A stretch of 18,664 nucleotides of DNA. It comes from Spirochaetales bacterium. Its GTDB lineage: Bacteria; Spirochaetota; Spirochaetia; JABEVK01. Shown piece by piece: positions 1-18,268 of this stretch. A program made the position numbers and the translations under genes. Numbering within the stretch: position 1 is the stretch's first letter; every line of letters starts with the position of its first letter. The stretch is taken from contig JBAXAI010000056.1 of assembly GCA_037142615.1 (NCBI GenBank), forward strand, positions 1-18,664, in the 5' to 3' direction. Under the pieces are notes generated by a model, which was not told the DNA's origin, made no database searches, and saw nothing but the letters and a program-made list of their open reading frames with translations.

Positions 1-2
1 AC

Positions 3-1517: not shown

Positions 1518-2770
1518 ACATCCCCGAATCGCGCCTGTTGCACGCCGCCCTGTTGAACTTCGACCGGGCCTGCACCCTGCTTGGCAACGAGTTCCCGGCC
1601 GACCTGCTGGCCAAGCTCCGCCAGCCCAACGAGCGCATCGAGCTGCGACTTTCGCCCCAGTTTGGCGATGGCAAGATCCACACCATCCAAGCGTACATCG
1701 TGCACCACAGCGACGCGGTGGGTCCGTGCAAGGGAGGCATCCGCATGACTCCGGGGGTCACCCTCGACGACGTGACCGCGCTGGCCATGGAAATGACGTG
1801 GAAGTGCGCGCTCATCGGCGTGCCCTTTGGCGGCGGCAAGAGCGGCATCGTGGCCGACCCGCTGGCCCTCAGCGCCGACGACAAGCAGGTGCTCATCCGC
1901 AGTTTTGCCCGCAACGCCCACCGCAACATCCACCCTCTGGTGTACATTCCCGCTCCCGACATGGGCACCAACGAGCGCGACATGGGGTATATCAAGGACT
2001 CCATCAGCCATTCGCTGGGCTACGCGACCACGCAAGGCAGCTACGTCACAGGCAAGCCCGTCATTTTGGGCGGCATACCGGGACGCAAGGAGGCCACCGG
2101 GCGTGGTGTAGTCCTGTCGACGGCCGAGGCGCTGGGCGGCAGCGTCAAGAGCGCGAGGGTGATCCTTCAGGGCTTTGGCAACGTGGGGGCCGGTGCCGCC
2201 GAAATCTACGCCGAGCTGGGCGCCCGCGTGGTGGGCGTCAGCGACATCGACGTGGGCCTGTACGACGAGAAGGGCCTCGACGTTCCGGCGCTGTTGGCAC
2301 ACGTGAAACGCACCGGCTCGCTGAAGGGCGCAGGACAAGGGCGCGAAGTGGACCGCGACGGCTTGCTGACGCTTCCCTGCGACGTTTTGGCACCCTGCGC
2401 CGGGGCCGACCAGCTTACCGCCGCCAACGCGGGCCTGGTCCAGGCCCAAGTCATTGCCGAGGGCGCCAACGGGCCCACCAGCCCCGACGCCGACGTTATC
2501 CTGCACTCGCGCGGCATCCAGGTGATTCCCGACATTCTGTGCAACGCCGGTGGTGTGTTCGTCAGCTACCTGGAGTACACTCAAGAGACCCAGCAGGAGC
2601 AGATGACCCGCGAGCAGGTGATCGACCGCCTCGACCGCCGCGTCCGCGAGCGCTTCCAGCTGGTGCGCCAGACCGCCGCCGACCGGGGCTTCACACCCCG
2701 CGAGGCCGCCATGTACCTGGCGCTGCAGAAAGTCTGTTCGGCCCACGTGGCCCGGGGGAATCTGCCGTGA
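1514..2770 (+). CDS. gdhA: Glu/Leu/Phe/Val dehydrogenase, glutamate dehydrogenase-like (418 aa)
   Basis: Motifs GPCKGGIR, MTWKCA, PFGGGKSG, IPAPDMGTN, VTGKP..GG..GRKEATGRG, Rossmann QGFGNVG, EGANGP and PDILCNAGGVFVSY. RBS AAGGAG upstream. Confidence 0.9.
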   Translation: MNIPESRLLHAALLNFDRACTLLGNEFPADLLAKLRQPNERIELRLSPQFGDGKIHTIQAYIVHHSDAVGPCKGGIRMTPGVTLDDVTALAMEMTWKCALIGVPFGGGKSGIVADPLALSADDKQVLIRSFARNAHRNIHPLVYIPAPDMGTNERDMGYIKDSISHSLGYATTQGSYVTGKPVILGGIPGRKEATGRGVVLSTAEALGGSVKSARVILQGFGNVGAGAAEIYAELGARVVGVSDIDVGLYDEKGLDVPALLAHVKRTGSLKGAGQGREVDRDGLLTLPCDVLAPCAGADQLTAANAGLVQAQVIAEGANGPTSPDADVILHSRGIQVIPDILCNAGGVFVSYLEYTQETQQEQMTREQVIDRLDRRVRERFQLVRQTAADRGFTPREAAMYLALQKVCSAHVARGNLP

Positions 2771-4824
2771 CGCTTGATGAGTTTGCCCTTGACCTGGTGA
2801 AGTCGGTCACTCCCGACGGGCATTTGTGGGTGGGCAGTGGCCGAACCACCGTGCAGCCGGTGGCCCGTACCGCCGCCGGGGTGGGGGCCTTCTATTCGCC
2901 GCCGGTGGCCGCCCACGGCGTGAGCCTGGCCGTCGTGTTCACCGTCGACGGCTTCACCGTGCCCGACACCGGCAACACCGGCAAGGGCGACATCGGCCTG
3001 CTCTACCAGGGCGGCACGTGGTACCCCGACAAGTTGGTGCGTCACGGCAGCTACCACCACCGTAAAAACGGCGTTTTGCGCTCTTTCGCGGTCGAATCGA
3101 CCCTGGTGCCTTTGGCCGACGCGGCGGGGTACGTGCTCCGGCTGAAGTTGACCAACCGTAGCCCTCAGCCCCTTTCGCTTTCGGCCCATCCGAGGTTGGA
3201 GCCCGGCAAGGTGGAGCTGCGCCCGCTTTCCGACTGGGTGTTCGGCCTGCCCCGGGGCGGTGACCCCCTGGTCGAAACGGCCCCTGGCGCGTGGCAGACG
3301 GCCGGCTACGGACCTCAAACCGAGCTTCGGGTTCAAAGCGAGACCCGCACGGTCGTGGTCTTCCCCGGCGAGTCTCACCTTTCCGAAGTGGTCGTTCTGG
3401 CGGGCCCGCGGACTGCCTCCCGCCTCCCTTTGGTCGACGCCACCATTGCGGCCCGGCGTACCTCCCAGGTCTGGAAGGCCCGGGTGGAACGCTTCACCGC
3501 ACGCCTGCCCGACGTGACCAGCACGGTTCCCGGCCTGGCCGACTACTACCGCCGGTCGGTGGCCAGCGGACTGGTGTGCCTTTGGGAAGATCCTGCCTTT
3601 GTGACCAACCCGTTTTTGGCGACCTGCGGCCTCGACGGAGGCGGCGTCAACACTTACTTGTGGGACCTCGGCGGTTACGTGCCGCAAGCCGCGACCCTGC
3701 TGTTGGGGTCAGACCTCGTGCCCATCGCTCAGGCCTTAGCCCGGGTACCGCTCGAAACCTACTTTTCGATCGCGCCCGATGGCACTCCTTCCGGGACTCC
3801 CTACTCGTACAGCGCCTTCTCGTTCCTGTCGCTCGTGTGGTCCATCAGCTGCCTGGTGGGCCCCGACGAGGCGCTTTACCGCGAGGCCCGGCGGCTGTTT
3901 GAGCTCGCTGAGACCCAGTTTCCCCGGCATCCGGACCCGAAGTTCGCCGACCTGCTCGACTACGGTGAACAACGCAACATGCTCGAAATGCGAGGTGCCG
4001 GGTGGGAGCACCTGGTAGCCAGCCCCAACGCCGAGCGCGCGTGGTGCCTCGACCGCTTGGCCGATCTCGGCTTGCACTTCGGCGCGGTCACCTTGGGCGA
4101 GGCTGCCGGGCTTCGTACCCGCGCCGAGCGCATCCGCCTCGCCATCCGCGAGCACCTTTGGGACCGCGAGCGCGGGGAGTTCAAAAGCGTGTTTCCCGAC
4201 GGTCATGTCGAGTACGCCCGCTCCATCCAGGCGTTCGACGCGCTGCGGGCCGGCGCCTGCGACCCCGAAATGGAGGCGGCGCTGCTGGCGCAAGTCGTCG
4301 ACGGGCAGTACCTCGGCGACTACGGGGCCACCAGCGTGTCGCGTGCCGACACCACGCACTACGAGACCAACGACCCCGACTGGTCGGGGGCGGGCGCCTA
4401 CACCGGCGATCCTCCCGCGCTGGCGCTGACGTTGTACGAGCGCGGGCACGCCGCGCTGGGCTGGGACGTGTTGCGACGGCTCTTCTGGATGGGCCAGCAC
4501 CTGCCGTACTTTCCGCAGGAACACCGCTGCGACACGCCGACCACCGTGGCCCACAAGCGCGCCAACGTCATTTCGGGGCTGGGCGGCGCCGAGGCGCTGA
4601 TCTTCGGCCTCACGGGGCTCCAGGTGGATCTGGGCGGTTCGCTGTCGCTGTTCCCCAACCCGCCTCCGGGTGGCGAAGTGAGCTTTCGCGGGCTGCAGGT
4701 GCGCGGCGCCACGCTCGACGTGGTTCTGCGTCCCGGCCACGCGACCATCACGGTGAACGGCACGGTGGTGCTCGACGGACCTCCGGCGCTTGTGACCTGG
4801 CCGACAGGGAGAGCCCATGGGTAA
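2767..4824 (+). CDS. Putative (alpha/alpha)6-barrel glycoside hydrolase (MGH1/GH63-like or amylo-alpha-1,6-glucosidase-like), 685 aa
   Basis: The likely start is GTG 2767, overlapping the dehydrogenase stop (GTGA); the upstream 347 codons of the tracked ORF look like a shadow frame. Six-hairpin-glycosidase-like motifs YLWD, HLWDRERGEF, YLGDYGATSVS, DPDWSGAGAY and LPYFPQE, with beta-rich N- and C-terminal domains. Exact family and substrate are uncertain. Confidence 0.7.
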   Translation: MTLDEFALDLVKSVTPDGHLWVGSGRTTVQPVARTAAGVGAFYSPPVAAHGVSLAVVFTVDGFTVPDTGNTGKGDIGLLYQGGTWYPDKLVRHGSYHHRKNGVLRSFAVESTLVPLADAAGYVLRLKLTNRSPQPLSLSAHPRLEPGKVELRPLSDWVFGLPRGGDPLVETAPGAWQTAGYGPQTELRVQSETRTVVVFPGESHLSEVVVLAGPRTASRLPLVDATIAARRTSQVWKARVERFTARLPDVTSTVPGLADYYRRSVASGLVCLWEDPAFVTNPFLATCGLDGGGVNTYLWDLGGYVPQAATLLLGSDLVPIAQALARVPLETYFSIAPDGTPSGTPYSYSAFSFLSLVWSISCLVGPDEALYREARRLFELAETQFPRHPDPKFADLLDYGEQRNMLEMRGAGWEHLVASPNAERAWCLDRLADLGLHFGAVTLGEAAGLRTRAERIRLAIREHLWDRERGEFKSVFPDGHVEYARSIQAFDALRAGACDPEMEAALLAQVVDGQYLGDYGATSVSRADTTHYETNDPDWSGAGAYTGDPPALALTLYERGHAALGWDVLRRLFWMGQHLPYFPQEHRCDTPTTVAHKRANVISGLGGAEALIFGLTGLQVDLGGSLSLFPNPPPGGEVSFRGLQVRGATLDVVLRPGHATITVNGTVVLDGPPALVTWPTGRAHG

Positions 4825-6583
4825 CTACGACAAGTTTCCTCGCGTCGAGCTGCCCGATCTGGCCGACCAGGCCTGGGCGGGTTGGCCAGCCGTGGGCTCC
4901 GAAATCGCCCGCCGCGCCCAGAAGCTGCTGGTCGGGGGTCAGACCTCGGCAGCGGGACGGGTTGTGGTTTGCGTCGACACCTACCCCGGCGTGCGCGACG
5001 CCGAATTGCTGGTGGCGCTGGCGCAGGCCTTGCAACCCAGGCTGCTGATCGACGCGGCCCGCGCCAGCAAAAGCCCGGCCGAGGTTTCGGCGATGGTCGA
5101 CCGCGAACTGACCACCGACCGCGTGTTCGGCCTGCTCAGCCGCCGCACCGTGGGCGAGTTCCTCGACCCGGAGGCCTCGGCGGCCGCCAGCCACCGGCTC
5201 GCGACAGCCCAAGGGGTGGTGCTGGTCTACGGCACCGGTGCCAGCCTGCTGTGTACCCCCGACGTGCTCGTGCTGGCCGACCTGGCCCGCTGGGAAATCC
5301 AGCAGCGCTACCGCCGCAAGGAGACCCCCAACTGGCTGGCCGCCAACACCGGCGAAGACGTGCTGCGGATGTACAAACGCGGTTTCTACCTCGACTGGCG
5401 GGTGTACGACCGGCACAAGAAGTCGCTGTTCCCCCGGCTCGACTACGTGCTCGACACCAACCGACCCGGCGACCCGGCACTACTGACCGGTTCGGCCTTC
5501 CGCGAGGCACTGGCGCGCACGGCGCAGCGGCCCTTCCGTGTGGTGCCGTTCTTCGACCCCGGGGTGTGGGGTGGCCAGTGGATGAAGTCGGTGTGCGGCC
5601 TCGACCCGTCGCTGCCCAACTACGCGTGGTGCTTCGACTGCGTGCCCGAAGAAAACAGCCTGGTGTTGGGTCTGGGCCCGGTGACCGTGGAACTGCCCTC
5701 GATTGACCTGGTGTTTGCCCGCCCCGAAGACCTGCTCGGCCCCCGCGTGCACGCCCGCTTCGGCACCGAGTTCCCCATCCGCTTCGACCTGCTCGACACC
5801 ATGGGCGGGGGCAACCTCAGCCTGCAAGTGCATCCGCTGACAGAATATATCCAAGACCACTTCAACATGCCCTACACCGAGGACGAGAGCTACTACCTGC
5901 TCGACGCCGGCGACGACGGCTCGGTGTTCCTGGGGCTCAAGGAGGGCGTGAACCCTGCAGCGATGATGGCCGATCTTCGCGCCGCGCAGGCCGGCGGGGC
6001 GCCGTTCCCCGACGAAGAGCACGTCAACCGCTTCCCGGCCCGCAAGCACGACCACTTTCTGATTCCCGCTGGCACCGTGCACTGCAGTGGACAGGGCAGC
6101 CTGGTGCTCGAGATCAGCTCGACGCCGTTCATGTTCACCTTCAAGATGTGGGACTGGGGCCGTTTGGGAATGGACGGCAAGCCGCGGCCTGTGCACCTGG
6201 ACCACGCCGAGGCCAACATCCAGTGGGACCGCACCACCGACTGGGTGAAGCGCGAGCTGGTGAACCGCATCGAGGTGGTGGCGCAAGGTGATGGCTGGAC
6301 CGAGGAGCGCACCGGCCTGCACGAGCGCCAGTTCCTCGAAACCCGCCGCCACTGGTTCACCGCTCCCGTCGACCACCACACCGGCGGGGGCGTGAACGTG
6401 CTCAATCTGGTCGAGGGCGAGGCCGCCGTGGTCGAAAGTCCCACAGGAGCCTTCGCCCCCTTCGAGGTGCACTACGCCGAGACGTTCCTTGTTCCGGCCG
6501 CCGTCGGGGCCTACCGCATCCGTCCGCTGGGCGAGGCCAAGAACGGCCGTTGGGGCACCGTGAAGGCCTTCGTCCGCGCCTGA
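4817..6583 (+). CDS. Long-form class I mannose-6-phosphate isomerase-like cupin protein (588 aa)
   Basis: C-terminal PMI type I motifs PFFDPGVWGGQW, FPIRFDLLDT..GGNLSLQVHP, DESYY, HFLIPAGTVH, VLEIS and TFKMWDWGR. It carries an extra ~235-aa N-terminal domain and overlaps the upstream gene by 8 nt. Confidence 0.8.
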   Translation: MGNYDKFPRVELPDLADQAWAGWPAVGSEIARRAQKLLVGGQTSAAGRVVVCVDTYPGVRDAELLVALAQALQPRLLIDAARASKSPAEVSAMVDRELTTDRVFGLLSRRTVGEFLDPEASAAASHRLATAQGVVLVYGTGASLLCTPDVLVLADLARWEIQQRYRRKETPNWLAANTGEDVLRMYKRGFYLDWRVYDRHKKSLFPRLDYVLDTNRPGDPALLTGSAFREALARTAQRPFRVVPFFDPGVWGGQWMKSVCGLDPSLPNYAWCFDCVPEENSLVLGLGPVTVELPSIDLVFARPEDLLGPRVHARFGTEFPIRFDLLDTMGGGNLSLQVHPLTEYIQDHFNMPYTEDESYYLLDAGDDGSVFLGLKEGVNPAAMMADLRAAQAGGAPFPDEEHVNRFPARKHDHFLIPAGTVHCSGQGSLVLEISSTPFMFTFKMWDWGRLGMDGKPRPVHLDHAEANIQWDRTTDWVKRELVNRIEVVAQGDGWTEERTGLHERQFLETRRHWFTAPVDHHTGGGVNVLNLVEGEAAVVESPTGAFAPFEVHYAETFLVPAAVGAYRIRPLGEAKNGRWGTVKAFVRA

Positions 6584-6619
6584 GGCACCAACGAGTTTGC
6601 GAAAAAGGCTCAACCCGGG

Positions 6620-6647
6620 GGACACATTTCCGGTCGGCGCGTGTTAC
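6620..6647 (+). promoter_or_regulatory. Candidate ECF-sigma-type promoter of the ECF/caspase operon
   Basis: GGACAC-N16-TGTTAC in the 100-nt intergenic region upstream of the RBS GGAGG (6673-6677). Spacing is ECF-like, but the assignment is inference only. Confidence 0.3.
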
Positions 6648-6683
6648 ATAGAACGAACCGATCGAAAGTTCCGGAGGAAAGTC

Positions 6684-7262
6684 GTGAAAAAGTCCCTGCT
6701 GACCGTCTTCTTTGTTGCCGCCACCCTGATTCCTGGCCTGGCCGCCCAAGAGCTCGTGCAATTGCGCCTGCCAGTGGTGGTATCAACACCGTGGACCGGA
6801 GCTGACTGGTCCCAAAACGCCACCCTCGGCCTGGCCCCCGAGCTGATCTTTGACCAGATCGGTTTTGGTGTCGACGGTGGGGTTCGCTTTACCCGCGACC
6901 TGAGCAAGGCCTGGAGCCTGGACTTCCGCGGGCAGCTGTTCACCAGCTTCCACTTCTTGGGCGTGCAGTCCAACCTCGACCCGTTCGTGCTCGCTGGGCT
7001 CGGGTCCGCAGGCTGGGTCGACCTTACGCACGGGGTTGCCCCCCGGCCTGGCGACAACCTGACCGGTATCGCCCTCGCGCTGGTGCCCTCGCTGGGGGCA
7101 GGTCTGGCCCTCGACCTTGGTGGTCTGGTTGTGGGACTCCGGGCCTTGTGGTTCCCCACCGTGTGGGATATTCCCGCCGCGCCTATCGACAGGTATCTTC
7201 TTGTGCCGGCTGAACTCAGCGTGTTCGTCGCCTGGGCGCTGGCCGACCACGCGAAGTGGTAG
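6684..7262 (+). CDS. Exported hypothetical protein, probable small outer-membrane beta-barrel (192 aa)
   Basis: GTG start after RBS GGAGG. Signal peptide MKKSLLTVFFVAATLIPGLAA. Alternating amphipathic strands GFGVDGGVRF, SLDFRGQLFTSFHF, LDPFVLAGLG, SLGAGLALDL and VVGLRALW. Confidence 0.65.
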   Translation: MKKSLLTVFFVAATLIPGLAAQELVQLRLPVVVSTPWTGADWSQNATLGLAPELIFDQIGFGVDGGVRFTRDLSKAWSLDFRGQLFTSFHFLGVQSNLDPFVLAGLGSAGWVDLTHGVAPRPGDNLTGIALALVPSLGAGLALDLGGLVVGLRALWFPTVWDIPAAPIDRYLLVPAELSVFVAWALADHAKW

Positions 7263-7269
7263 CCGGGCG

Positions 7270-7749
7270 ATGACCGACGTCGAGGCCCTGTACCGGCGCT
7301 ACGGACCCATGGTCCATCGTCGCTGCCGGGCGCTGTTGGGCGAGGAAGGTGCGGCCGACGCTTCGCAAGAGGTGTTTGTGCGGCTGTTGCGCACCGGGAG
7401 TCGGCTCGAAGACCGGGGCCTGTGCAGCCTGCTCTACACCCTGGCGACCCACCAGAGCCTGAACGTGCTGAGGGCCGAAAAGTCGCGCCCGGGCTTTGCG
7501 GCCAGCGATCTGCTCGAAGAAATCGCCTGCCTGGACGAGGGTGAGGACCGCACCCTGGCCACTGACCTGCTCGAACGGGTGTTTCACCAGCATCCAGCCT
7601 CGAGCCGCATGCTCGCCACGTTGCACTGGGTCGATGGCCTGACCCTGGAGGAAACGGCGCAGGCCGTCGGTTTGTCGGTGTCGGGAGTGCGTAAACGACT
7701 GGCCAAACTGAAAGAATCGGGACGACTGCTCAAGGAGGCTCCCCTGTGA
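7270..7749 (+). CDS. ECF-type RNA polymerase sigma-70 factor (159 aa)
   Basis: Region 2: VEALYRRYGPMVHRRCRALLG..AADASQEVFVRL..LYTLATHQSLNVLR. Region 4: LHWVDGLTLEETAQAVGLSVSGVRKRL. ATG 7270 lies just after the upstream stop. Confidence 0.92.
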   Translation: MTDVEALYRRYGPMVHRRCRALLGEEGAADASQEVFVRLLRTGSRLEDRGLCSLLYTLATHQSLNVLRAEKSRPGFAASDLLEEIACLDEGEDRTLATDLLERVFHQHPASSRMLATLHWVDGLTLEETAQAVGLSVSGVRKRLAKLKESGRLLKEAPL

Positions 7750-8501
7750 AAATCAACACCTTGCACGCCGAACAACACCACCTGGGCGAACTTCCCGCAG
7801 GGCTGCAACCCGACTGGACCGAAGCTGAGGCCCAGGCCTCCCACACTGAGCTCGCGGCGGCCGATGAGGCCTACTTGGCGCGATACCCTGCGGACAAGGC
7901 GGCCGCTGCGATCCAGGCTGCACTCGCGGCACCGTCCCCGCAGGCCCGCAGCCAGAGACCTTCGCGGCTGACCCGCCTGACGCTGCGGTTTGCTCCCCTT
8001 CTGGCGGCGGCCGCGCTCATCGTCGGCATCGGCACCGGTCCGCTGCTGGACAGCCTGAACACCGAGCGGACCAAGGGTAGCGCCGCCAATGGTGGCGCCA
8101 AGCTCGCGGTGTACCGGCAAAGCGCCGACGGCGTCACGCTGTTGGCCGAAGGGGCCAAGGCCCGGGCCGGTGACCGGCTCCAGGTGGAGTTTGTCGCGCC
8201 ACTCCGCAGTTGGGTTCTGGTGTTTTCGGTCGACGGAGCAGGGGTTTTGACCACCCACTACCCAGCCGACTCGGCGGCCAGCAAGGCCACGCGGGCCGTT
8301 CAGGTTGCCACTGCCGACACGCTGGTGAATCAGGCCTACGTGCTCGACAACGCGCCGAACTTCGAGCGGTTCTACCTCGTGGTGGCCGCCCACGGGTTCG
8401 ACCTCGCCACGGTTTGGAGCTCCCTGCGGGCGCACCCGCTCGACACCCGTCTTCCCGACGGCCTCATTGCGTATCCTCTGACCCTGACCAAGGAGCCCTG
8501 A
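7746..8501 (+). CDS. Putative single-pass membrane anti-sigma factor with extracytoplasmic (DUF4384-like) domain, 251 aa
   Basis: Coupled to the sigma gene (GTGA). N-terminal helical domain LHAEQHHLGELP without a ZAS HxxxCxxC motif, a basic stretch, then a TM helix FAPLLAAAALIVGIGTG and RTKG. The beta-rich C-domain (RAGDRLQVEF..WVLVFSVDGAGVLTTHYP..AYVLDNAPNFERFYLV) resembles DUF4384. Confidence 0.7.
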   Translation: MKINTLHAEQHHLGELPAGLQPDWTEAEAQASHTELAAADEAYLARYPADKAAAAIQAALAAPSPQARSQRPSRLTRLTLRFAPLLAAAALIVGIGTGPLLDSLNTERTKGSAANGGAKLAVYRQSADGVTLLAEGAKARAGDRLQVEFVAPLRSWVLVFSVDGAGVLTTHYPADSAASKATRAVQVATADTLVNQAYVLDNAPNFERFYLVVAAHGFDLATVWSSLRAHPLDTRLPDGLIAYPLTLTKEP

Positions 8502-8502
8502 C

Positions 8503-10506
8503 ATGAAACGACTGGTTTTGCTCACCCTGGCGGTGGGCCTGATGACCACCCTTACCGCGGCCGATCTGCGCCGGTTTGCCCTTTTTGTGGGTGCCGACAA
8601 CGGCGGATCCGGGCGCGTGGCGCTTCGTTATGCTGTCAGCGACGCCAAGGCCCTGCAGGGTGTTCTCACCGAACTTGGGGGCCTGGCCAGCTCAGATTCC
8701 TCGGTGCTCGGCAACCCCGACCGCAATGCGGTGCTGAAGTCGCTGGCTTCCTTCGGGCCGCGTGTCGCCCAGGGCAAGCTGGCCGGTTCCCGGGCCGAGT
8801 TCCTGTTTTATTACTCGGGCCACTCCGACGAAAACGGGCTTCTGCTGGGAAACACCCGCATCGGCTACGGCGAACTTCGCGACGCTCTGGCGGGGGTCGG
8901 GGCCGACGTGCGTTTGGCGGTGCTCGACTCGTGCGCGTCGGGGGCGTTCACCCGGCTCAAGGGCGGCACCAAGACCGCGCCGTTTTTGCAGGACGAGTCG
9001 TCGGTGCTCGAAGGCCACGCCTACCTCACCTCGTCGTCCGAAGACGAAGCGAGCCAGGAATCCGACAAGATCGGGGGCTCGTTTTTTACCCACTACCTCA
9101 TTTCGGGTCTGCGCGGTGCCGCCGACACGACAGGCGACGGCCGGGTGAGCCTCAACGAAGCCTACCGGCACGCCTTCGACGAAACCCTGGCGCGCACCGA
9201 AGACACCCAGGCGGGGCCCCAGCACCCTTCGTACGACATTCAGCTTTCGGGTACCGGCGACCTGGTTCTCACCGACCTGACGCAGAAGACCAGCCGCCTG
9301 GTGCTCGGCCCCGACGTCGCGGGCCAGGTGTTTGTGCGCACGCAGTCGGGCTCGCTCGTGGTCGAGGTCCGTAAGTCTGCCGGCGAGGCGTTGAGCCTCG
9401 CGGTTCCCGCTGGTGTTTACGAAGTCGCCTTGCAGGCTCCCGAAGGGTTTTCCCAGACCCGACGCGGCGTCGTCGCTGGTGAGGCGGCCAACGTGTCAGC
9501 GGCTGACTTCACTCTGGGCACCAAGCAGGCTACCCGTGTGCGGGGCTCCGCGTCGGGGGGGGCTGCGCCAACCGTGGTCGGGCAGGACTATCTGCGCCTC
9601 AACTTCGGCCTCACGCCAGGCCTCGAACTGTTCGACGCCAGCGACAAAACCACCGCCCTCAGTCTGCACGGCATCCTTTCTGTCACGGGCTATTCCCGCG
9701 TGTTGCAACTGGCGGGCGTCGGCAACCTTTCGCAGGGAAACGAAGGCCTGCAGGGTGCCGGGGTGTTCAACATCGTCAGCGGCGAGGTGCTCGGCGCGCA
9801 GTCCGCAGGGGTTTTCAACCTGAGCGGGCCCTTGCGCGGCGCTCAGTTGGGTGGGGTGTTCAACCAGGCCGAGTCGGTGTGGGGGTTGCAAGCGGCCGGG
9901 GTGCTCAACATCGCCGGCGACGTTTCGGGGCTCCAGACCGCCGGGGTCGTCAACATCGCCCGCAACGTGAAGGGCTTTCAGCTCGGGCTGGTCAACATCG
10001 CCAACCACGTCGACGGCATGGCTCTCGGCCTGGTCAACATCGCCGACAACAGCTACGGCAGCTTGGGCTTTGACTACGACGTGCGCGGCCAGCAGTGGAC
10101 AACCCTCGAATGGGGCGCAGGCACGCTGCACAACATTCTCATTGCCGCGCCGGGCACACAACTGGCCCTCGACGGACTCAAGGGCATCGGACTCGGGCTA
10201 GGCTGGGGCAAGGAAGTCCGCCTGGAAACCCAGGCCGTGGCGTTTTACACCTCGTCGGGCTGGAACTTCGAGTCAACCGCGGGCGCCCCGGTCGCCGTGA
10301 CCCCTGCCTTCCGCGCCGTGCTGAACGCCAAACTCGGCTTTCTGGGCGTACACGTCGGCTGGCTGGGCACGGCTGGCTTCCCGGGCTACACCGCCGACAC
10401 CACTCTTGTCGGCGGGCCCGATACCCTCGAAACCCAGGCCTTTACCCCCGGCTACACCTGGCTCATCACCGGCCGACCGTTCTTGGGGGCCTCGATCGGC
10501 TTTTGA
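8503..10506 (+). CDS. Exported caspase-family (peptidase C14, ortho/metacaspase) protein with repeat region and beta-rich C-terminus, 667 aa
   Basis: Signal peptide, RRFALFVGADNG, LRYAVSDA, catalytic His in YYSGHS (H107) and Cys in VLDSCASG (C144), then SQESDKIGGSFFTHYLISGLRGAAD..GDGRVSLNEAY..QHP. About eight G-x-Q-x-x-G-V-x-N repeats follow and the protein ends FLGASIGF. RBS AAGGAG. Confidence 0.88.
   Translation: MKRLVLLTLAVGLMTTLTAADLRRFALFVGADNGGSGRVALRYAVSDAKALQGVLTELGGLASSDSSVLGNPDRNAVLKSLASFGPRVAQGKLAGSRAEFLFYYSGHSDENGLLLGNTRIGYGELRDALAGVGADVRLAVLDSCASGAFTRLKGGTKTAPFLQDESSVLEGHAYLTSSSEDEASQESDKIGGSFFTHYLISGLRGAADTTGDGRVSLNEAYRHAFDETLARTEDTQAGPQHPSYDIQLSGTGDLVLTDLTQKTSRLVLGPDVAGQVFVRTQSGSLVVEVRKSAGEALSLAVPAGVYEVALQAPEGFSQTRRGVVAGEAANVSAADFTLGTKQATRVRGSASGGAAPTVVGQDYLRLNFGLTPGLELFDASDKTTALSLHGILSVTGYSRVLQLAGVGNLSQGNEGLQGAGVFNIVSGEVLGAQSAGVFNLSGPLRGAQLGGVFNQAESVWGLQAAGVLNIAGDVSGLQTAGVVNIARNVKGFQLGLVNIANHVDGMALGLVNIADNSYGSLGFDYDVRGQQWTTLEWGAGTLHNILIAAPGTQLALDGLKGIGLGLGWGKEVRLETQAVAFYTSSGWNFESTAGAPVAVTPAFRAVLNAKLGFLGVHVGWLGTAGFPGYTADTTLVGGPDTLETQAFTPGYTWLITGRPFLGASIGF
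9703..10047 (+). repeat. Intragenic ~14-16-aa tandem repeats (beta-solenoid-like; LA_2272-type surface repeat)
   Basis: LQLAGVGN, GLQGAGVFN, GAQSAGVFN, GAQLGGVFN, GLQAAGVLN, GLQTAGVVN, GFQLGLVN and GMALGLVN; recurring GTCAACATCGCC at DNA level. Confidence 0.85.
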
Positions 10507-10521: not shown

Positions 10522-11943
10522 CTACTCGAGCCCCGGCAGGCGGAAGAACTCCTTGGCGTTGCTGTAGCAGATGCTCTTCACCAGGCCTCCGACCAGTTTT
10601 TCGTCGCCGGGCACGAGGCCCTCTTCCATCCAGCCGCCGACCAACCGGCACAGCACGCGGCGGAAGTACTCGTGGCGCGGAAAGCTCAAAAAACTGCGGC
10701 TGTCGGTGAGCATGCCCACGAACCGGCTCAAGAGGCCCTGGTTGGCTAGCGCCCGCAGTTGCAGGTCCATGCCATCGATGTGGTCGTTGAACCACCACGC
10801 CGACCCGAGCTGCACCTTGCCCGCGACCGAACCGTCCTGGAAGCACCCGATTACAGAGCCCAGCAGATCGTTTGCGGTCGGGTTGAGCGAATACAGAATG
10901 ACGCGGGGCAGGGCGCCCTCGCGGTCGAGGATTCCCAAAAAGGCCCCGAGGGCGAGGCCGACGGGAGCGTCGCTGATGGCGTCGTAGCCGGTGTCGGGCC
11001 CGAGTTTGGCAAACTGACCGGGGCTCAGGTTGCGCTGCGCCCCGATGTGCAGCTGCATGGTCCAGCCCTTGGCTGTGTTCAGGCGGCCCACCTCGAGCAG
11101 AAGGTCGGTTTGCAGGGCTTCGGCTTCGGCCGCCGTCACCGGAACACCCTTCAGGCACCGGTCAAAGGTAGTGTCGAGCTCGGCAGCGGTGGCAGACCTT
11201 GCGGGAGGGACCACCAGCGCGTGGTCAGTCAGGCGGCAACCCGCCTGGTGAAACGCCTCATGCCGGTGCCCCAGCGCAGCCTTGAGATGGGCACGCGTCG
11301 CAATGGTTATTCCCGCCGCCGCGCCCAATTTCTTCAGGTAGTCGGGCCACGTGGTCAATTGCACAGCCACCGCCTTGTCGGGCCGGAAGGTCGGCGCCAT
11401 GACTACCAGGTCCGTTGCTGCCGACTTGGACCCCTTGTGCCGCAAGTGATGCGCCAGGTCGTCGGCCGGGTCGTCGGTGGTGCACAGGGCCCTCACCTTC
11501 ATCTTGGCCAGCAGTTCCTGCGTCGAAAACCCGCCGCCGCGCAGTTGTTCGTTGGCGGCGTCGTAGATGCGGTCGGCGCTCGCCGGGTTCAGGGGCTCGG
11601 TGATGCCGAAGTACCGCTGCAGCTCCAGGTGCGTCCAGTGGTAGAGCGGGTTGCCCAGCAGGTGGGGCACGGTGGCGGCCCAGGCGCGGAAGCTCTCGCG
11701 GTCGGGCTTGCGCCCGGTGATCAGCGCCTCGGGAAGGCCGTTGGCCCGCATTTGCCGCCACTTGTAGTGGTCGCCGCCCAGCCACAGCTGCGCCAGGTCG
11801 GTGAACCTGGTGTTGTCGGCCACCTCGTTCGGCGGCAGGTGGTTGTGGTAGTCAAGGATGGGCTCGTTCTTGGCCCAAGCGTGAAACAGGCGCCGGGCCG
11901 GCTCGGTGGTCAGCAGAAAGTCTTCGTGCAGGAAAGGTTTCAT
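10522..11943 (-). CDS. uxaC: Glucuronate (uronate) isomerase, 473 aa
   Basis: Start ATG 11943 (MKPFLHEDFLL) overlaps the uxaE stop. Motifs PILDYHNHL, WLGGDHYKWRQMR, GNPLYHWTHLEL, CTTDDP, QLHIGA, GSAWWFND and GMLTDSRSFLSFPRHEYFRR. Confidence 0.96.
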   Translation of the reverse strand: MKPFLHEDFLLTTEPARRLFHAWAKNEPILDYHNHLPPNEVADNTRFTDLAQLWLGGDHYKWRQMRANGLPEALITGRKPDRESFRAWAATVPHLLGNPLYHWTHLELQRYFGITEPLNPASADRIYDAANEQLRGGGFSTQELLAKMKVRALCTTDDPADDLAHHLRHKGSKSAATDLVVMAPTFRPDKAVAVQLTTWPDYLKKLGAAAGITIATRAHLKAALGHRHEAFHQAGCRLTDHALVVPPARSATAAELDTTFDRCLKGVPVTAAEAEALQTDLLLEVGRLNTAKGWTMQLHIGAQRNLSPGQFAKLGPDTGYDAISDAPVGLALGAFLGILDREGALPRVILYSLNPTANDLLGSVIGCFQDGSVAGKVQLGSAWWFNDHIDGMDLQLRALANQGLLSRFVGMLTDSRSFLSFPRHEYFRRVLCRLVGGWMEEGLVPGDEKLVGGLVKSICYSNAKEFFRLPGLE

Positions 11944-13196
11944 CGCAGGTTCTCCAGAAACAACGGACGCATGTGCTTGTCGAAAAGATTGTCGGTGACG
12001 CGTTTGCCCACCACCGCCGCGTGTTTTTCGAGCGCGCCCAGGTAGCGAGGCCCCAGTTCGGCGGCCACCTTGTAGCCCACGTGGATCAGTTGGCGGAAGC
12101 TCGGGTTGAACGCCGGGTTCTTTTGGTCGTGGGCCAGCGCGGCCACGAACTGAGCCGCGTTCCATTTCCCTATCGTGTCGGGCGAGGGGAGCTTCTTGGG
12201 GTCGATGTCGATCACCGACGCGTACGGTGCGGCCAGCTCGTCGTAGCGGCCCAGCGCCCCCAGATAGATTTCCTTGGCGAGGGCCAAACCGTCGGCGCCG
12301 GCTTCGGCCAAACCGGTCACTTCCTCGAGCCAGGTCGTCCCCGCCGTCTTGATGTGCAAGCCCGCGTTGTGCTTCTTGACCGCGCGGCCGATGGGGCCGT
12401 ACAGGCTGAACTTGTCGCTGCCCGAGTGCACGCTGAGCTTCAGGTTGGCCGGCAGTCCGTGGGTCGCCACCGCGTGGGCAATCACCAGCAGGTCGTCGCC
12501 AAACTCCTTTTCGAACACCGCCAGGTTGCCCACAAAGTCGACGCCCTTGTTGAACCGGCCCGAGAACTTGGGCGCGATGGTCTGGATGGGAATGCCTTCA
12601 TCGGCGATGGCCGACAGGATGAACCACAACTCGAGAGGGGTTTGCGGCAGGTCGGTCTCGTCCATCGAGATTTCGGTGACAAAGTGGCCTTTGCCCTTGG
12701 CGGCCTCGATGCGCCGGTAGATTCGCCCGGCTTCCTGCACCGCGAACAGGTACTTGCCGGCGATGCGCTCGACGTCCGAACTCCCTAGCGAAAACGGTCG
12801 GTCGATGCCCGGCAGCTCGAGTTTGCCGGCCTTGAGGGCGTGGCGGGCCGCAAACGCGCCCAGCGAGGCCGGCTCGGCCGCTTTGCCGATAAAGTCGGCC
12901 ACATCGAGGGTGTAAAAGTCGCAGGCCGCCAAAAAACCATCCACGGTCTTCTGCCCGATGTGGTCGGCATCGCAATAATAGGGGTCACTCCAGCCGAGGG
13001 CCTTCACGGCGGCGTCGGCCTCGGCCCGGGTGGCGGCAGGCTCGCTGTGGATGATGCTGTGCTCGCGGAACGATTTGTTCCACACCGGGGCGATGGTCAC
13101 GCCCGCGGCTTTGGCGGCGACAAAGGCCTGCAACTGAGCGACGCCCTGGTGCGCGAACCGGTCGCCGATGCCCATCGAAAAACGGGGTAGGGTCAT
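11940..13196 (-). CDS. uxaE: Tagaturonate/fructuronate epimerase, 418 aa
   Basis: FSMGIGDRF, DADHI, EISMDET, IAPKFSGRFNKGVD, KLSVHSGSDKFS and HIKTAGTTWLE are UxaE family motifs. RBS AAGGAG; adjacent to uxaC. Confidence 0.9.
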   Translation of the reverse strand: MTLPRFSMGIGDRFAHQGVAQLQAFVAAKAAGVTIAPVWNKSFREHSIIHSEPAATRAEADAAVKALGWSDPYYCDADHIGQKTVDGFLAACDFYTLDVADFIGKAAEPASLGAFAARHALKAGKLELPGIDRPFSLGSSDVERIAGKYLFAVQEAGRIYRRIEAAKGKGHFVTEISMDETDLPQTPLELWFILSAIADEGIPIQTIAPKFSGRFNKGVDFVGNLAVFEKEFGDDLLVIAHAVATHGLPANLKLSVHSGSDKFSLYGPIGRAVKKHNAGLHIKTAGTTWLEEVTGLAEAGADGLALAKEIYLGALGRYDELAAPYASVIDIDPKKLPSPDTIGKWNAAQFVAALAHDQKNPAFNPSFRQLIHVGYKVAAELGPRYLGALEKHAAVVGKRVTDNLFDKHMRPLFLENLR

Positions 13197-13217
13197 AGTG
13201 AACTCCTTGAAACCAGA

Positions 13218-14075
13218 CTAGACGCCGCTAGAGGCGCTGAAGCCGCCGTCGACCGGCAGCACGATGCCCGTCACAAACCGCGACAGGTTCGAAAGCAAGA
13301 ACAACACCGCGCCTTGCAGCTCCTCCACCTCGCCGAAGCGGGCCATGGGAGTCCCCGCGACGATCTTGCGGGCCCGGGGCGACTTCTCGCCGGTTTTTTC
13401 ATCGAACATCAAAAAACGGTTCTGCTCGGTGAGAAAAAAGCCCGGTGCCAGCGCGTTGACGCGGATGCCCTGCGGCGCCAGGTGCACGGCCAGCCACAGC
13501 GTCAGGTTGTTTACCGCCGCCTTGGCCGCCGCGTAGCCTGCCACCTTGGTCAGCGGGCGAATCGAGGCCATCGACGACAGGTTGAGGATGACTCCGCCGC
13601 GCCCCACCATGTCTTGGCCAAACACCTGGGTGGGCAGCAGCGTGCCGGTGAAATTCAGCCGCATCACGTCGTCAAAGGCGTTCGGGTCCATGGCAAAAAA
13701 GCTGGACGCGAGGTCGCCGCCGGGCTGAAGCGTTTCGGCTGGAGCCGTGGCCGTTGGTTTGTTGCCCCCGGCACCGTTGATCAGCAGGTCGATGCGCCCC
13801 AGGCGCTCGTGGATCTCTGATCGAGCCGCCTCAAGGGCGGCTCGATCGAGCACATCGAAGCCCAGCCCGACGATGGTGCCCGCTCCCGGCACCCCTTTGA
13901 GTTCGGCGTTCAGCTTGTCGGCCAGCGCCTCGGCCTTCGCCCGGTCGCGCCCCGCGATGGCCAGCTTGACCCCGGCAGCGCCCAGCGCCCGGGCCAGCGC
14001 CACACCGATCACGCCGGTTCCCCCGGTCATCACGGCCACCTTGCCGCGCAAATCTGCAAAATCCAATGGGTTCAT
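13218..14075 (-). CDS. uxuB: SDR oxidoreductase, D-mannonate oxidoreductase/fructuronate reductase (UxuB-type), 285 aa
   Basis: Start ATG 14075 overlaps the LacI stop (ATGA). Motifs TGGTGVIG, LINGAGGN, LNFTGTLLPTQVF, SSMASIRPLTKVAGYAAAK (YxxxK), RVNALAPGFFLTEQNR and PVDGGFSA. Context is uxaE/uxaC. Confidence 0.82.
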   Translation of the reverse strand: MNPLDFADLRGKVAVMTGGTGVIGVALARALGAAGVKLAIAGRDRAKAEALADKLNAELKGVPGAGTIVGLGFDVLDRAALEAARSEIHERLGRIDLLINGAGGNKPTATAPAETLQPGGDLASSFFAMDPNAFDDVMRLNFTGTLLPTQVFGQDMVGRGGVILNLSSMASIRPLTKVAGYAAAKAAVNNLTLWLAVHLAPQGIRVNALAPGFFLTEQNRFLMFDEKTGEKSPRARKIVAGTPMARFGEVEELQGAVLFLLSNLSRFVTGIVLPVDGGFSASSGV

Positions 14076-15076
14076 AGTGTTCCTTTGTGGTCGTCGCCCG
14101 CCACATGGCTTTCCCGGGCCACAAACGCGGGCCGGAAACTTTCGTAGTGATCGTTGGCAAGGGTCGCACCGCTCATCCACGCTGACAGGTGTTCCTGCGC
14201 GCGCTCGCCCAAGCGGTGAAAGCCGATGTCCCAGGTGCTCAGCGCCGGCACGGTCTGCTCGGCGAACGGGAAATTGTCAAAGCCGATGACCTCAAGGTCG
14301 TCGGGCACCCGTACCCCGTTGCGCCGCAGAAAACTGAGCGCCGGAATGGCCACCTGGTCGGTACGGAAGAACATCGCGTCGAAGTCCTTCCAGCCGCCGC
14401 CTGCAGCCCGGGCCAGGAAATCTTCGGCCGAGTGGATGCCACCCCAGAACGACAGGTCGGGATGGTTCCAGTACCGGAAGGCCGGCCGCATGTCCCAGTC
14501 GTATTCGTACACCACGAGGATGCGTTTTCGTCCGCGGCGAAAAAAGTGCTCCATGCTGCTTTCGACGGCGTGCCCGCGGTCGATGTCGAGCGAAGGCACC
14601 ACGCCCCGCAACCGCGAACCGATGCCCAGAATCTTCAGGGTGGACTTTTCGACGGCCTGCCGCAGCGTCTGCTGACCTTCGTCGTGGCCAAACAGGTCGG
14701 TGAACAGCACGATACCGTCCTTGTACCGCTCGGCGTAGCCTTGCAGCGCGGCCACCGCCCGGTCGGGGTCAAAGCGGTGCTCGGCCAGCGCCACCTCGAA
14801 GCCCTGACCCGAGAACTGCTCGACGAACGGCACCAGAAAATCCTGTCGGGTGAAGGCGTCGATCTGGTCGACAATCAGGCCCACGCTGTGCGTTTTGCGG
14901 GTGCGCAGGCTGCTCGACAGGTAGTCCTTTTTGTAGCCCAGCCGCTCGGCCGTTTCGCGCACTTTTCGGCGCACCTCGAGCGACGCGAAGCTGGTGACGT
15001 TGTTGTTGAGGATGTTGCTGACCGAGCTGACCGCCAGACCGCATTCGCGGGCGATATCCTTGAGGGTGACTGCCAT
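14072..15076 (-). CDS. LacI-family transcriptional regulator of the hexuronate operon, 334 aa
   Basis: HTH VTLKDIARECGLAVSSVSNILN, hinge LGYKKDYLSSSLRTRKT, and C-terminal VPDDLEVIGFDN..PALST. Confidence 0.93.
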   Translation of the reverse strand: MAVTLKDIARECGLAVSSVSNILNNNVTSFASLEVRRKVRETAERLGYKKDYLSSSLRTRKTHSVGLIVDQIDAFTRQDFLVPFVEQFSGQGFEVALAEHRFDPDRAVAALQGYAERYKDGIVLFTDLFGHDEGQQTLRQAVEKSTLKILGIGSRLRGVVPSLDIDRGHAVESSMEHFFRRGRKRILVVYEYDWDMRPAFRYWNHPDLSFWGGIHSAEDFLARAAGGGWKDFDAMFFRTDQVAIPALSFLRRNGVRVPDDLEVIGFDNFPFAEQTVPALSTWDIGFHRLGERAQEHLSAWMSGATLANDHYESFRPAFVARESHVAGDDHKGTL

Positions 15077-15092
15077 AGAAATCGATATCTAT
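15075..15092. promoter_or_regulatory. LacI-type palindromic operator
   Basis: ATAGAAATCGATATCTAT is an 18-bp palindrome with one mismatched pair and a central CG. It lies between the -10 box and the LacI start codon. Confidence 0.75.
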
Positions 15093-15119
15093 CCTAAATC
15101 CACCCCGATTTTACGTCAA
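15091..15119 (-). promoter_or_regulatory. Sigma70 promoter for lacI-uxuB-uxaE-uxaC
   Basis: On the - strand: TTGACG (15119-15114), a 17-nt spacer, then TAGGAT (15096-15091). Confidence 0.75.
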
Positions 15120-15132
15120 TCCCTGCGCTCCG

Positions 15133-16206
15133 CTAATTCCTGCGTATCGACTTCCCTTCGCGCGCCGAACGGGTGAGCAGCGTCACCACCCGCAAGGCTT
15201 CCAGGCCGTCGGCGCCGCGTACCCCCCGCTTGGCCTCGACTCCGGCGCCACCCTCGGCGCGGCTGCATTCCACAAAGTGCCGCATCTCTTCGGCGTAGCC
15301 CAGGGTGTAGCGTTCGTCGACGGCTGGTCGCGACCAACCGGTGGTCACCTCGGCCTTTTCGACCGTGTAGGCAAACCCGGGTATCGAGTACGCGCTGATG
15401 GCCGAACTGGCGGTCAGGTCGATGTGGAGGCGGCCCTTTTCGCCGTAGATGTCGATCTGGTCTTCCATGCCGCCCACCGTCAGGTAATTCGCCTCGACCA
15501 GCGCCGTGGTGCCGTCCTCGAACCGCAGCAGACCCGCGGCCCAGTCTTCGCCCTCGAGCGCGTGGTGGCGCAGGTTGCCCGCCAGACCGCCCGAGCTCAT
15601 GGCGGTCAACTCGGTCCAAGGTTGATTTTTCAGCGCGAGCACAAACCCTATCGGGTGGATGCCCAGATGCAGCAGGCTGCCACCGCCGCAAAACTCCAGC
15701 GTTTGCGCGTAGGGCGAGTGCGAACCCGAGTGGCATTCGCGGGCCCGCACGTACAAGGGCCTCCCGAGGCCACCTTCGTTCACCAGATCGAGAGCCTTGA
15801 GAAGCGCCGGCGCGAACAGCCAGTCTTCGGCGTAGTACAGCCTTTTTCCGGTGCGTTCGGCGGCCGCGACCATGGCCTCGGCGTCTTCGAGCGTCGTCGC
15901 CAACGGTTTTTCGCACAGCACGTGCTTGCCGGCCTCAAACGCCGCCAGCGCTGCGGGTGCATGCAGGTAGTTGGGCAGGCAGATATCCACCAGATCGGCC
16001 CCGCTGTGGGCGATAGCTTCGCGGAAGTCCTGGTAGTGCTTCACCGCAGGCAGACGCCAGCGTACCGCCAGCCGCTGCGTCTTGGCCGGGTCGCGGGCGC
16101 AGAGCCCCACCACCTCGGCAAGGTCAGTCAGCCGCGAATAGGCGTCGAGGTGCAAGTCGGCGGCAAAGGCCCCGCCCAGCACAAGAATCTTCGTCTTGCG
16201 GTTCAT
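15133..16206 (-). CDS. Gfo/Idh/MocA-family oxidoreductase, 357 aa
   Basis: Rossmann ILVLGGAFAADLH, DLVDICLPNYLH, GKHVLCEKPLA and GGGSLLHLGIHPI. RBS AAGGAG. Confidence 0.92.
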   Translation of the reverse strand: MNRKTKILVLGGAFAADLHLDAYSRLTDLAEVVGLCARDPAKTQRLAVRWRLPAVKHYQDFREAIAHSGADLVDICLPNYLHAPAALAAFEAGKHVLCEKPLATTLEDAEAMVAAAERTGKRLYYAEDWLFAPALLKALDLVNEGGLGRPLYVRARECHSGSHSPYAQTLEFCGGGSLLHLGIHPIGFVLALKNQPWTELTAMSSGGLAGNLRHHALEGEDWAAGLLRFEDGTTALVEANYLTVGGMEDQIDIYGEKGRLHIDLTASSAISAYSIPGFAYTVEKAEVTTGWSRPAVDERYTLGYAEEMRHFVECSRAEGGAGVEAKRGVRGADGLEALRVVTLLTRSAREGKSIRRN

Positions 16207-17211: not shown

Positions 17212-17298
17212 CCCGCCAAACTCCCGCTCGAACTTCTAGACATGATATCCAATTATCTGGCAAGCTGGACAAAATATCCAGTCCGGAAGGAGCCCCCC

Positions 17299-18243: not shown

Positions 18244-18246
18244 AGC

Positions 18247-18268
18247 TGCCTCGCGAGGCACCTCTTTT
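18247..18268 (+). terminator. Possible intrinsic terminator after the URO-D gene
   Basis: Perfect 14-bp palindrome TGCCTCGCGAGGCA (18247-18260) followed by CCTCTTTT; the U-tract is weak. Confidence 0.4.

Follow-up and report, generated by a model that had tools for sequence, protein, structure and literature searches.

An 18,664-nucleotide (nt) stretch of DNA from a Spirochaetales bacterium (GenBank assembly GCA_037142615.1, contig JBAXAI010000056.1; the whole stretch is hereafter called the window) contains three co-directional, abutting genes, which encode a sigma factor of the extracytoplasmic function (ECF) type (7270-7749), an anti-sigma factor (7746-8501) and a caspase-like protease of peptidase family C14 (8503-10506). 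A preliminary description of this DNA had noted a shared [TE]-R-x-[KR]-G motif, once in the anti-sigma factor and twice in the protease, and had taken it for a caspase cleavage code. Our principal reading, which we rate at close to but somewhat below an even chance, is that these linear motifs are real, are under strong selection within a conserved envelope signalling module of three genes, and mark a relay of cuts after basic residues in the P1 position. The system is a probable caspase-type site-1 protease system, and the three motifs, nearly invariant in hundreds of bacteria and placed in flexible loops of the structural models, are promising candidates for cut sites in a signalling switch of the envelope that has not been described before. 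Cleavage at the motifs, as suggested by homologous sequences and predicted structures, is a plausible and sharply testable interpretation.

Translation and a regular-expression scan found the motifs where they had been described. ERTKG spans residues 107-111 of the anti-sigma factor (nt 8064-8078); in the protease, TRLKG spans residues 150-154 (nt 8950-8964), with Thr150 six residues past Cys144, and TRVRG spans residues 344-348 (nt 9532-9546). Neither protein has a further match to [TE]R.[KR]G. When the sequences were shuffled 20,000 times with their composition preserved, the anti-sigma factor had one match or more with a frequency of 0.008 and the protease two or more with a frequency of 0.0005; both arose together 0 times. 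These figures overstate significance because the motif was defined after the fact, and we therefore relied on conservation rather than on shuffle frequencies. The three-motif observation itself is confirmed and lies far beyond chance.

Conservation was assessed in several sets of homologues. For the anti-sigma factor, a direct protein search gave 13 relatives, the alignment of which was then used to scan species-representative genomes; the best 80 of the 571 encoding stretches were taken as loci. A second sample consisted of 30 loci from the window's own phylum, to which six modules from multi-copy genomes were added. These samples overlap, and removal of duplicates left 112 unique anti-sigma and 107 unique protease sequences. 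Protease relatives numbered 3,849 at E ≤0.001 among 8,000 scored candidates, and the protease subfamily comprises 2,356 representative clusters at E ≤1e-30; site conservation was counted in the 120 best homologues and in 151 representatives (150 from clusters at 50% identity, plus the window protein).

The anti-sigma factor (251 residues, 7746-8501, forward strand) is a single-pass membrane protein in its AlphaFold2 model (mean predicted local distance difference test, pLDDT, 82.9), with helices at residues 5-12, 26-46 and 49-61, a transmembrane helix at 74-97, a linker at 98-111 and, starting at residue 119, a beta domain in the periplasm. The juxtamembrane linker (nt 8037-8078) is the only segment with pLDDT below 50, and it ends in E107-R108-T109-K110-G111, where a site-1 cut might fall between K110 and G111. 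In the 13 direct relatives K110 and G111 are invariant and R108 is nearly so; in the window and the 80 loci, K110 and G111 are present in 81/81 and R108 in 70/81, with position 107 occupied by Thr (31), Glu (15), Val (15) or Ile (13). The K-G pair recurs in 30/30 loci of the second sample and in 6/6 extra modules, so that among unique sequences K110-G111 stands at 112/112 and R108 at 100/112. Across the stretch between residues 16 and 160, nothing else in the anti-sigma factor is invariant. The distance from the transmembrane core to the lysine varies from 19 to 42 residues. From the lysine to R124 the spacing is 8-9 residues in 64/81 proteins and 11-16 in 16/81, the window protein being one of the latter, and insertions of 4-7 residues separate K-G from the first strand in 16/81. 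We conclude from these spacings that K-G is placed relative to the domain, yet is not locked into the fold.

The window anti-sigma factor has no Pfam match and fits no NCBIfam anti-sigma model; some homologues have been named "anti-sigma factor RsiW" by the Joint Genome Institute. Its periplasmic domain (residues 119-249, nt 8100-8492) is DUF4384-like: PF14326 matches 15/54 family members, the window protein itself being unmatched. Within the domain S161, D163, H171, D201, E207 and K249, the last a few residues from the C-terminus, are invariant, and these polar residues could form a ligand- or metal-binding site or mark another processing site. Profile-profile comparison gave no homology between this domain and the beta-sandwich of the protease (probability 0.15).

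The protease (667 residues, 8503-10506, forward strand) matches PF00656 over residues 23-224 with 39.1 bits against a cut-off of 21.4, and 60/60 members of one protease alignment (A2) match it as well; Pfam found neither CHAT nor TPR in it. Its AlphaFold2 model (mean pLDDT 87.9) consists of a signal-peptide-like helix at residues 2-16, a caspase domain at ~21-248, a beta-sandwich at ~250-340, a linker at 345-361 and an all-beta repeat or barrel-like half at 362-667. The six caspase-type strands span residues 22-30, 66-70, 97-108, 136-145, 171-178 and 241-248. Foldseek matched the model to caspases-1, -3, -6, -7 and -8, procaspase-1, MALT1 and the metacaspase Yca1 with probability 1.00 and template-modelling (TM) scores by target of 0.54-0.68. 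A single-sequence search against solved structures returned no match, and a profile search returned only a weak one, to metacaspase-4 (E=0.11). The catalytic dyad (nt 8821-8934) consists of His107 (nt 8821-8823), part of SGH, and Cys144 (nt 8932-8934), part of an invariant DSC; the former closes strand 97-108 and the latter strand 136-145, with Asp142 two residues before the Cys. Both H107 and C144 are present in 120/120 homologues and 151/151 representatives, and D47 and D142 are each present in 151/151. In the weak metacaspase-4 match (E=0.11), D47 aligns with the Asp of "LRGCVND", and D47 and D142 may line the S1 pocket, as such residues do in metacaspase structures. The gene assignments of the preliminary description, an ECF sigma factor, a single-pass anti-sigma factor and a C14 protease with a His/Cys dyad, hold, that of the anti-sigma factor as a probable one.

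The same genome encodes 22 other Peptidase_C14 matches, most of them far closer to the Pfam model than the window protease is, and we conclude that these paralogues represent a large caspase expansion in this genome. All 8 of the 22 that we inspected have DACR[DN]NPF...[TA]RGL after the catalytic Cys; members of the expansion include C3:102316-102978, C27:4367-5044 and C2:159101-159742.

The first protease motif, T150-R151-L152-K153-G154-G155 (nt 8950-8967), lies in the loop between the fourth and fifth strands and is a candidate autoprocessing site, with the cut predicted between K153 and G154. This loop (146-170) links the strand that ends in Cys144 to the next strand, 171-178, and K153 stands nine residues past the Cys. 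We assume that the loop occupies the topological position of the linker between the large and small subunits of caspases. K153, G154 and G155 are each present in all 120 homologues, R151 in 118 and T150 in 110; in the 151 representatives the counts are 151 for K153, 150 for G154, 151 for G155 and 149 for R151. In the 107 unique proteases K153-G154 is found in 107/107 and G155 in 103/107, and the P3 position is Arg in 89, Lys in 6 and another residue in 12. The 25 residues around K153 score 0.78 for conservation, against 0.69 for the whole catalytic domain, and TRLKGG is therefore a core motif of the family rather than part of a variable linker. A reading of TRLKGG as a site of the kind that Gly-Gly-type cysteine proteases cut was dropped, the residue before the Lys being variable and the anti-sigma factor having no second Gly.

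An invariant lysine in a flexible segment near the active site, and another in the partner protein, would also suit a pseudo-substrate, in which the loop Lys or the anti-sigma linker Lys fills the S1 pocket and holds the enzyme inactive or tethers it to the inner membrane, the signal then coming from its displacement and not from a cut in the anti-sigma factor. The strictness of the Lys fits a ligand that is tuned to be slow or non-productive. In plant metacaspase-4, linker Lys225 occupies the active site of the resting enzyme; the same Lys is also the cut site, so this precedent overlaps with cleavage. We consider a purely pseudo-substrate role improbable.

The second protease motif, T344-R345-V346-R347-G348 (nt 9532-9546), lies at the end of the beta-sandwich, before the variable linker, and its candidate cut falls between R347 and G348. 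R347 is kept in 118 of the 120 homologues (Lys in the remaining 2) and G348 in all 120, with T344 in 70 and R345 in 46; among the 151 representatives R347 is found in 147 (Lys in 3 more) and G348 in 148. The 107 unique proteases have R-G in 96 cases, K-G in 4 and another pair or a gap in 7. The linker that follows G348 has a conservation of 0.16 and is very variable in length and sequence. Beyond it, the repeat and beta-barrel-like half (residues 362-667, nt 9586-10503) ends in Phe and is presumed, from its all-beta model, to be an outer-membrane anchor. Its matches to the LA_2272 repeat and to VC2662 are both below their cut-offs, and the nearest Atlas structure clusters are of unnamed Bacteroidota proteins, with outer-membrane protein barrels at lower TM scores.

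Members of the nearest of these clusters (TM score by query 0.69), which is from Bacteroidota, carry STN in 26% of cases and FecR_C in 19%. This structural likeness hints that the same barrel-like module may be used by anti-sigma-type proteins elsewhere.

Taken across homologues, the conserved cores are R-x-K-G in the anti-sigma factor, T-R-x-K-G-G in the protease loop and R-G at the junction. A basic residue followed by Gly is thus conserved at all three sites, and the full five-residue pattern is over-specified: its Thr/Glu position varies (anti-sigma position 107; T344 in only 70/120), and at the third site the Arg at -2, Arg345, is poorly kept (46/120). The preliminary description placed the motifs in linkers, taken to be variable. 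In its support, all three lie in the sole low-confidence, presumably flexible segments of the two models (in the protease, 147-158, 160-167 and 345-361 are the only segments with pLDDT below 50). As to variability, two of them adjoin linkers of variable length, whereas TRLKGG is in the best-conserved loop of the catalytic domain.

The anti-sigma factor and the protease are tightly linked genetically. In loci retrieved through the anti-sigma factor alone, a caspase-domain gene lies directly downstream in 75/80, and an ECF sigma gene directly upstream also in 75/80. Among the five loci without a caspase gene, one (L009) ends ~110 bases after the anti-sigma match and another (L045) has less than 1 kb of downstream sequence; the other three (L016, L031 and L078) appear to have no downstream caspase gene. 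The caspase gene is present in 30/30 loci of the second sample and in 6/6 extra modules. This linkage bears on the possibility that the sites are cut by another envelope protease of the DegS/DegP, Prc/CtpA or trypsin-like type, with the caspase-like protein acting as a downstream effector or sensor. Known anti-sigma site-1 proteases are serine proteases, according to abstracts on AlgW, Prc and CtpA, in favour of such an arrangement. The very tight linkage of anti-sigma factor and protease (75/80 and 30/30 loci) argues the other way, as does the presence of one motif within the protease's own catalytic domain; moreover, comparison of the window's upstream open reading frames with the loci revealed no other conserved protease gene in the module. 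We regard cutting by another protease as quite unlikely.

A relay of cuts would proceed as follows. The protease, with its intact His107/Cys144 dyad and an acidic S1 pocket probably formed by Asp47 and Asp142, would cut after basic residues, as its membership of family C14 suggests. It would be activated by a cut between Lys153 and Gly154, where caspases split into large and small subunits. The active protease would then cut the anti-sigma factor between Lys110 and Gly111, in the flexible juxtamembrane linker, removing the DUF4384-like domain and leaving a periplasmic stub of ~13 residues. By analogy with RseA/DegS/RseP, an M50 site-2 protease would next clip the transmembrane helix and free the sigma factor; the genome encodes a candidate (PF02163 at G000:C1:247445-248734, E=3.4e-55). 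Release of a sigma factor by a cut in the anti-sigma linker would also have analogues in DdvA, in the Csx29/Csx30 pair of craspase and in PCaspase/PCc-sigma. Arg347-Gly348 would mark the boundary between the protease unit and the C-terminal module and might be a third processing site, the least secure step of the proposal. The enzymatic background assumed in the preliminary description agrees with a review (PMC5756287), according to which characterised non-caspase C14 enzymes prefer Arg or Lys at P1, the orthocaspase MaOC1 needs autoprocessing, and processing takes place between p20 and p10.

Several observations weigh against a relay of cuts or for a structural explanation, in which the motifs are kept for structure or binding and are never cut, and the sigma factor merely controls expression of a protease that has other substrates in the envelope. 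TRxKGG would then belong to an active-site or regulatory loop that gains order once substrate binds or the enzyme dimerises; the anti-sigma K-G would contact the DUF4384-like domain or cap its N-terminus, and R-G would cap the beta-sandwich. First, the whole 147-167 loop is conserved, beyond K-G, suggesting that it probably does more than get cut and has a role in the active site or in binding as well. Second, another conserved basic-Gly pair of the protease, R204-G205, sits in a confidently modelled helix, and conserved basic-Gly pairs therefore need not be cut sites. Third, [TA]RGL occurs in this loop of the inspected C14 paralogues as well, at a distance of 17-22 residues from the Cys (a comparison in which no anti-sigma motif was considered), and an Arg/Lys-Gly pair there may, judging from these sequences, be a general C14 trait. 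Fourth, p20-p10 autoprocessing never occurs in type I metacaspases, according to PMC5756287. Fifth, the anti-sigma K-G is mostly at a fixed 8-9 residues from R124 (64/81), with its distance from the membrane variable. Finally, the relay presumes that the caspase domain is periplasmic and not exposed on the cell surface.

The junction site adds to this side of the balance. Three complete proteases (from L018, L025 and L034) lack the barrel and end in a 54-residue tail with a Lys-rich, helix-like end, and all three keep R-G. A further 11 proteases with a C-terminal part of 152-207 residues also keep it (L005, L013, L033, L038, L042, L058, L061, L037, L063, L065 and L074); the other complete proteases have 282-499 residues of repeats and barrel, and the C-terminal module has been swapped between lineages. 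Since R-G is kept in barrel-less forms, the site delimits the protease unit on its C-terminal side, irrespective of what comes next. The proposal that it serves release from a membrane anchor is accordingly not the whole story, and a role in anchor release alone is weakened.

Against the structural explanation, all three motifs lie in the sole low-confidence segments of otherwise confident models, and the 4-7-residue insertions between K-G and the fold are tolerated in 16/81 anti-sigma factors. Furthermore, the same R-x-K-G core occurs in two unrelated products of genes that are adjacent in 75/80 loci, one of them from a protease family with a preference for basic P1 residues. We judge that the motifs are structural and uncut to be a real possibility, which on balance we doubt. 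A complex prediction for protease residues 21-350 with anti-sigma residues 98-251 scored 0.26 and 0.29, the mark being 0.32, and weighs neither way.

The identity of the basic residue is a further difficulty for a relay of cuts, and a further point for a structural role, since Lys and Arg are not interchangeable at the sites. A Lys-to-Arg swap was found in 0/112 sequences at the anti-sigma site and in 0/107 at the loop site, and at the third site Arg is the rule and Lys is rare; an enzyme that merely takes either residue would not predict such a partition. The partition, with Lys at two sites and Arg at the third, would fit transpeptidation: the protease would cut between Arg347 and Gly348 and transfer the acyl group onto the epsilon-amine of Lys110 or Lys153, so that protease and anti-sigma factor become cross-linked. 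Some clan CD enzymes are transamidases, but we know of no precedent for transpeptidation in family C14. In addition, all three sites keep the Gly that follows the basic residue equally well, and this suits a shared P1-P1' reading better; we think cross-linking very improbable.

If one enzyme read both proteins by a matched code, their P3 residues might be expected to vary together. In the first sample they appeared to do so (4/11 versus 0/65; Fisher p=2.6e-4), with the signal coming from two lineages only (L032/L081, at 64% identity, and L052/L056, at 96%). The second sample contained six proteases with Ser, Gln or Leu at P3 beside Arg-bearing anti-sigma factors, and the combined table, [[4,8],[8,87]], gave p=0.028, uncorrected for kinship. 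The first-sample signal was thus not replicated, and we rejected P3 covariation as support for a shared reader. A code specific to each module within one genome was likewise rejected: in G264, a genome with four modules, every anti-sigma factor of the four carries R-[VI]-K-G, and the motif therefore cannot insulate paralogous modules. Both results count against the direct tie between enzyme and substrate that the preliminary description had drawn from the motif; what stands of that tie is the genetic linkage in 75/80 loci, and what falls is the matched code. We conclude from the aligned sequences that the shared element appears to be a generic basic-Gly site, often with Arg at -2, rather than a code that differs from module to module. 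If there is specificity, its source is probably the DUF4384-like domain or tethering.

Two genomes of the window's phylum have more than one complete sigma/anti-sigma/caspase module: G264 has four (L121-L124) and G057 has two (L125 and L126). In G264, two of the four proteases have Thr in place of Arg at P3, and K-G in place of R-G at the third site.

The proposed module resembles several known systems without coinciding with any of them. RseA/DegS/RseP shares with it an ECF sigma factor and a single-pass anti-sigma factor, with a juxtamembrane periplasmic site-1 cut followed by an M50 cut (proposed here). It differs in that its site-1 enzyme is a PDZ serine protease; in our module the candidate is a cysteine protease of caspase fold that shares the operon and carries an outer-membrane-type half, and the anti-sigma sensor is DUF4384-like. 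MALT1, the best Foldseek match (8v4x_C, ~390 aligned columns), likewise has a caspase domain followed by a beta-sandwich, of immunoglobulin-like type, but it is a eukaryotic cytosolic scaffold protease with 12% identity and no membrane context. MALT1 cuts after Arg, often before Gly. In Dma, as here, a disordered tether in the periplasm joins an ECF switch to a beta-barrel of the outer membrane, and the sigma factor has been proposed to be released by proteolysis; there, barrel and anti-sigma factor form one polypeptide and no dedicated protease is known, whereas here the barrel-like half is on the protease. Plug, TonB_dep_Rec, STN and FecR were unmatched in the three proteins, and the structural similarity of the C-terminal half to an Atlas cluster partly with STN/FecR_C is the sole resemblance to systems of the FecA/FecR/FecI type.

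Control of sigma regulators by caspase-fold proteins is already known or proposed, in the cytoplasm (craspase, PCaspase) and in fused form (DdvA). DdvA/DdvS of Myxococcus xanthus combines a transmembrane anti-sigma factor with a periplasmic caspase-family (CHAT) module, and caspase-like proteolysis in the flexible linker between transmembrane helix and periplasmic domain, followed by RseP, has been proposed (PMC11506125). CHAT in DdvA is preceded by TPR repeats and forms one protein with the anti-sigma factor; in our module the C14 protease is a protein of its own, with an anchor of its own, a DUF4384-like domain takes the place of CHAT on the anti-sigma factor, and no genes of CRISPR or cyclic-oligonucleotide-based anti-phage signalling (CBASS) systems lie nearby. 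In craspase, Cas7-11/Csx29 (TPR-CHAT) cuts Csx30, the holder of an RpoE-type sigma factor (10.1101/2022.08.17.504292). As is proposed here, a caspase-fold protease cuts a flexible linker that connects an N-terminal, sigma-binding part to a C-terminal domain, and in one group of Csx30 proteins this C-terminal domain is DUF4384, the family that the anti-sigma domain resembles (10.1101/2022.08.17.504292). Unlike our module, craspase is described as cytoplasmic, RNA-guided, CRISPR-linked and of CHAT rather than C14 type, and its cut sites lie after Met or Leu, not Lys (PMC11506125). The type III-B cascade of Haliangium places a Peptidase C14 gene, PCaspase, beside a sigma factor named as its target, PCc-sigma (10.1101/2023.06.23.546230); it is cytoplasmic, is activated by SAVED-CHAT after CRISPR signalling, and has no transmembrane anti-sigma factor or outer-membrane anchor. 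MaOC1 and the type II metacaspases are C14 enzymes with a His/Cys dyad, an acidic pocket that confers basic P1 specificity and obligatory autoprocessing, type II metacaspases being cut in the p20-p10 linker (PMC5756287). By contrast, the candidate site here is only 9 residues past the Cys, a caspase-like spacing, and the protease is an exported protein with a beta-sandwich and a barrel-like half whose gene belongs with those of a sigma/anti-sigma pair.

We found no description of a module of sigma factor, anti-sigma factor and periplasmic C14 protease in the literature searched, subscription journals and supplementary files being outside its reach. In the paper that reclassified the ECF sigma factors (Casas-Pastor et al. 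2021, PMC7826278), a term search of the main text turned up neither caspase, C14, metacaspase nor DUF4384; the supplementary group tables may list such a context. If our reading is true, caspase-type activation and substrate cleavage would free a sigma factor in the bacterial envelope, in a CRISPR-independent, periplasmic counterpart of craspase and DdvA. Three exact residues are now testable, and a first functional handle on DUF4384 would follow. A bolder version, which we offer tentatively and consider rather doubtful as a whole, is a widespread, hitherto undescribed trans-envelope switch. In it, a caspase-fold protease anchored in the outer membrane would be the dedicated site-1 protease of its own anti-sigma factor. 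It would be activated in the manner of animal caspases, by a cut between Lys153 and Gly154, nine residues past the Cys, and would then dock on the DUF4384-like domain and cut the anti-sigma factor between Lys110 and Gly111; DUF4384 would be a general caspase-docking module, providing the link to Csx30.

The module is widely distributed. Matches were found in 60/401 genomes and 43/153 genera sampled from the window's phylum, and record titles place it in Spirochaetota, Myxococcota, Aminicenantes, Fibrobacterota and Proteobacteria. At one locus (L118, G319:C62:10208-11080) the anti-sigma match lies inside an 861-residue open frame with one in-frame TGA, which could reflect a fusion, read-through or an assembly error.

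The genes of the module are closely packed in the window. The sigma factor (159 residues, 7270-7749, forward strand) matches TIGR02937 with 55.3 bits against a cut-off of 42.9 and Sigma70_r2 above its cut-off, the region-4 models falling below theirs. Its stop codon overlaps the GTG start of the anti-sigma gene within GTGA, and the protease start lies two bases past the anti-sigma stop. On either side of the module (window positions 1-6583 and 10522-18261) are genes for GH3, glutamate dehydrogenase, an MGH1-like glycoside hydrolase, UxaC, UxaE, a short-chain dehydrogenase/reductase, a LacI-type regulator and a GFO/IDH/MocA oxidoreductase. These point to carbohydrate and uronate catabolism, and we saw no obvious functional tie to the module; no CRISPR-Cas or other defence genes are among the window neighbours. 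Immediately upstream, an open reading frame of 221 residues on the forward strand (6597-7262) ends 8 bases before the sigma gene. Its product has a hydrophobic, signal-like stretch and a C-terminal Trp, and has no Pfam match. Relatives of this open reading frame adjoin the module in 7/80 loci, in the same orientation in one (L002) and on the opposite strand in the other six, and its product may be a small outer-membrane partner.

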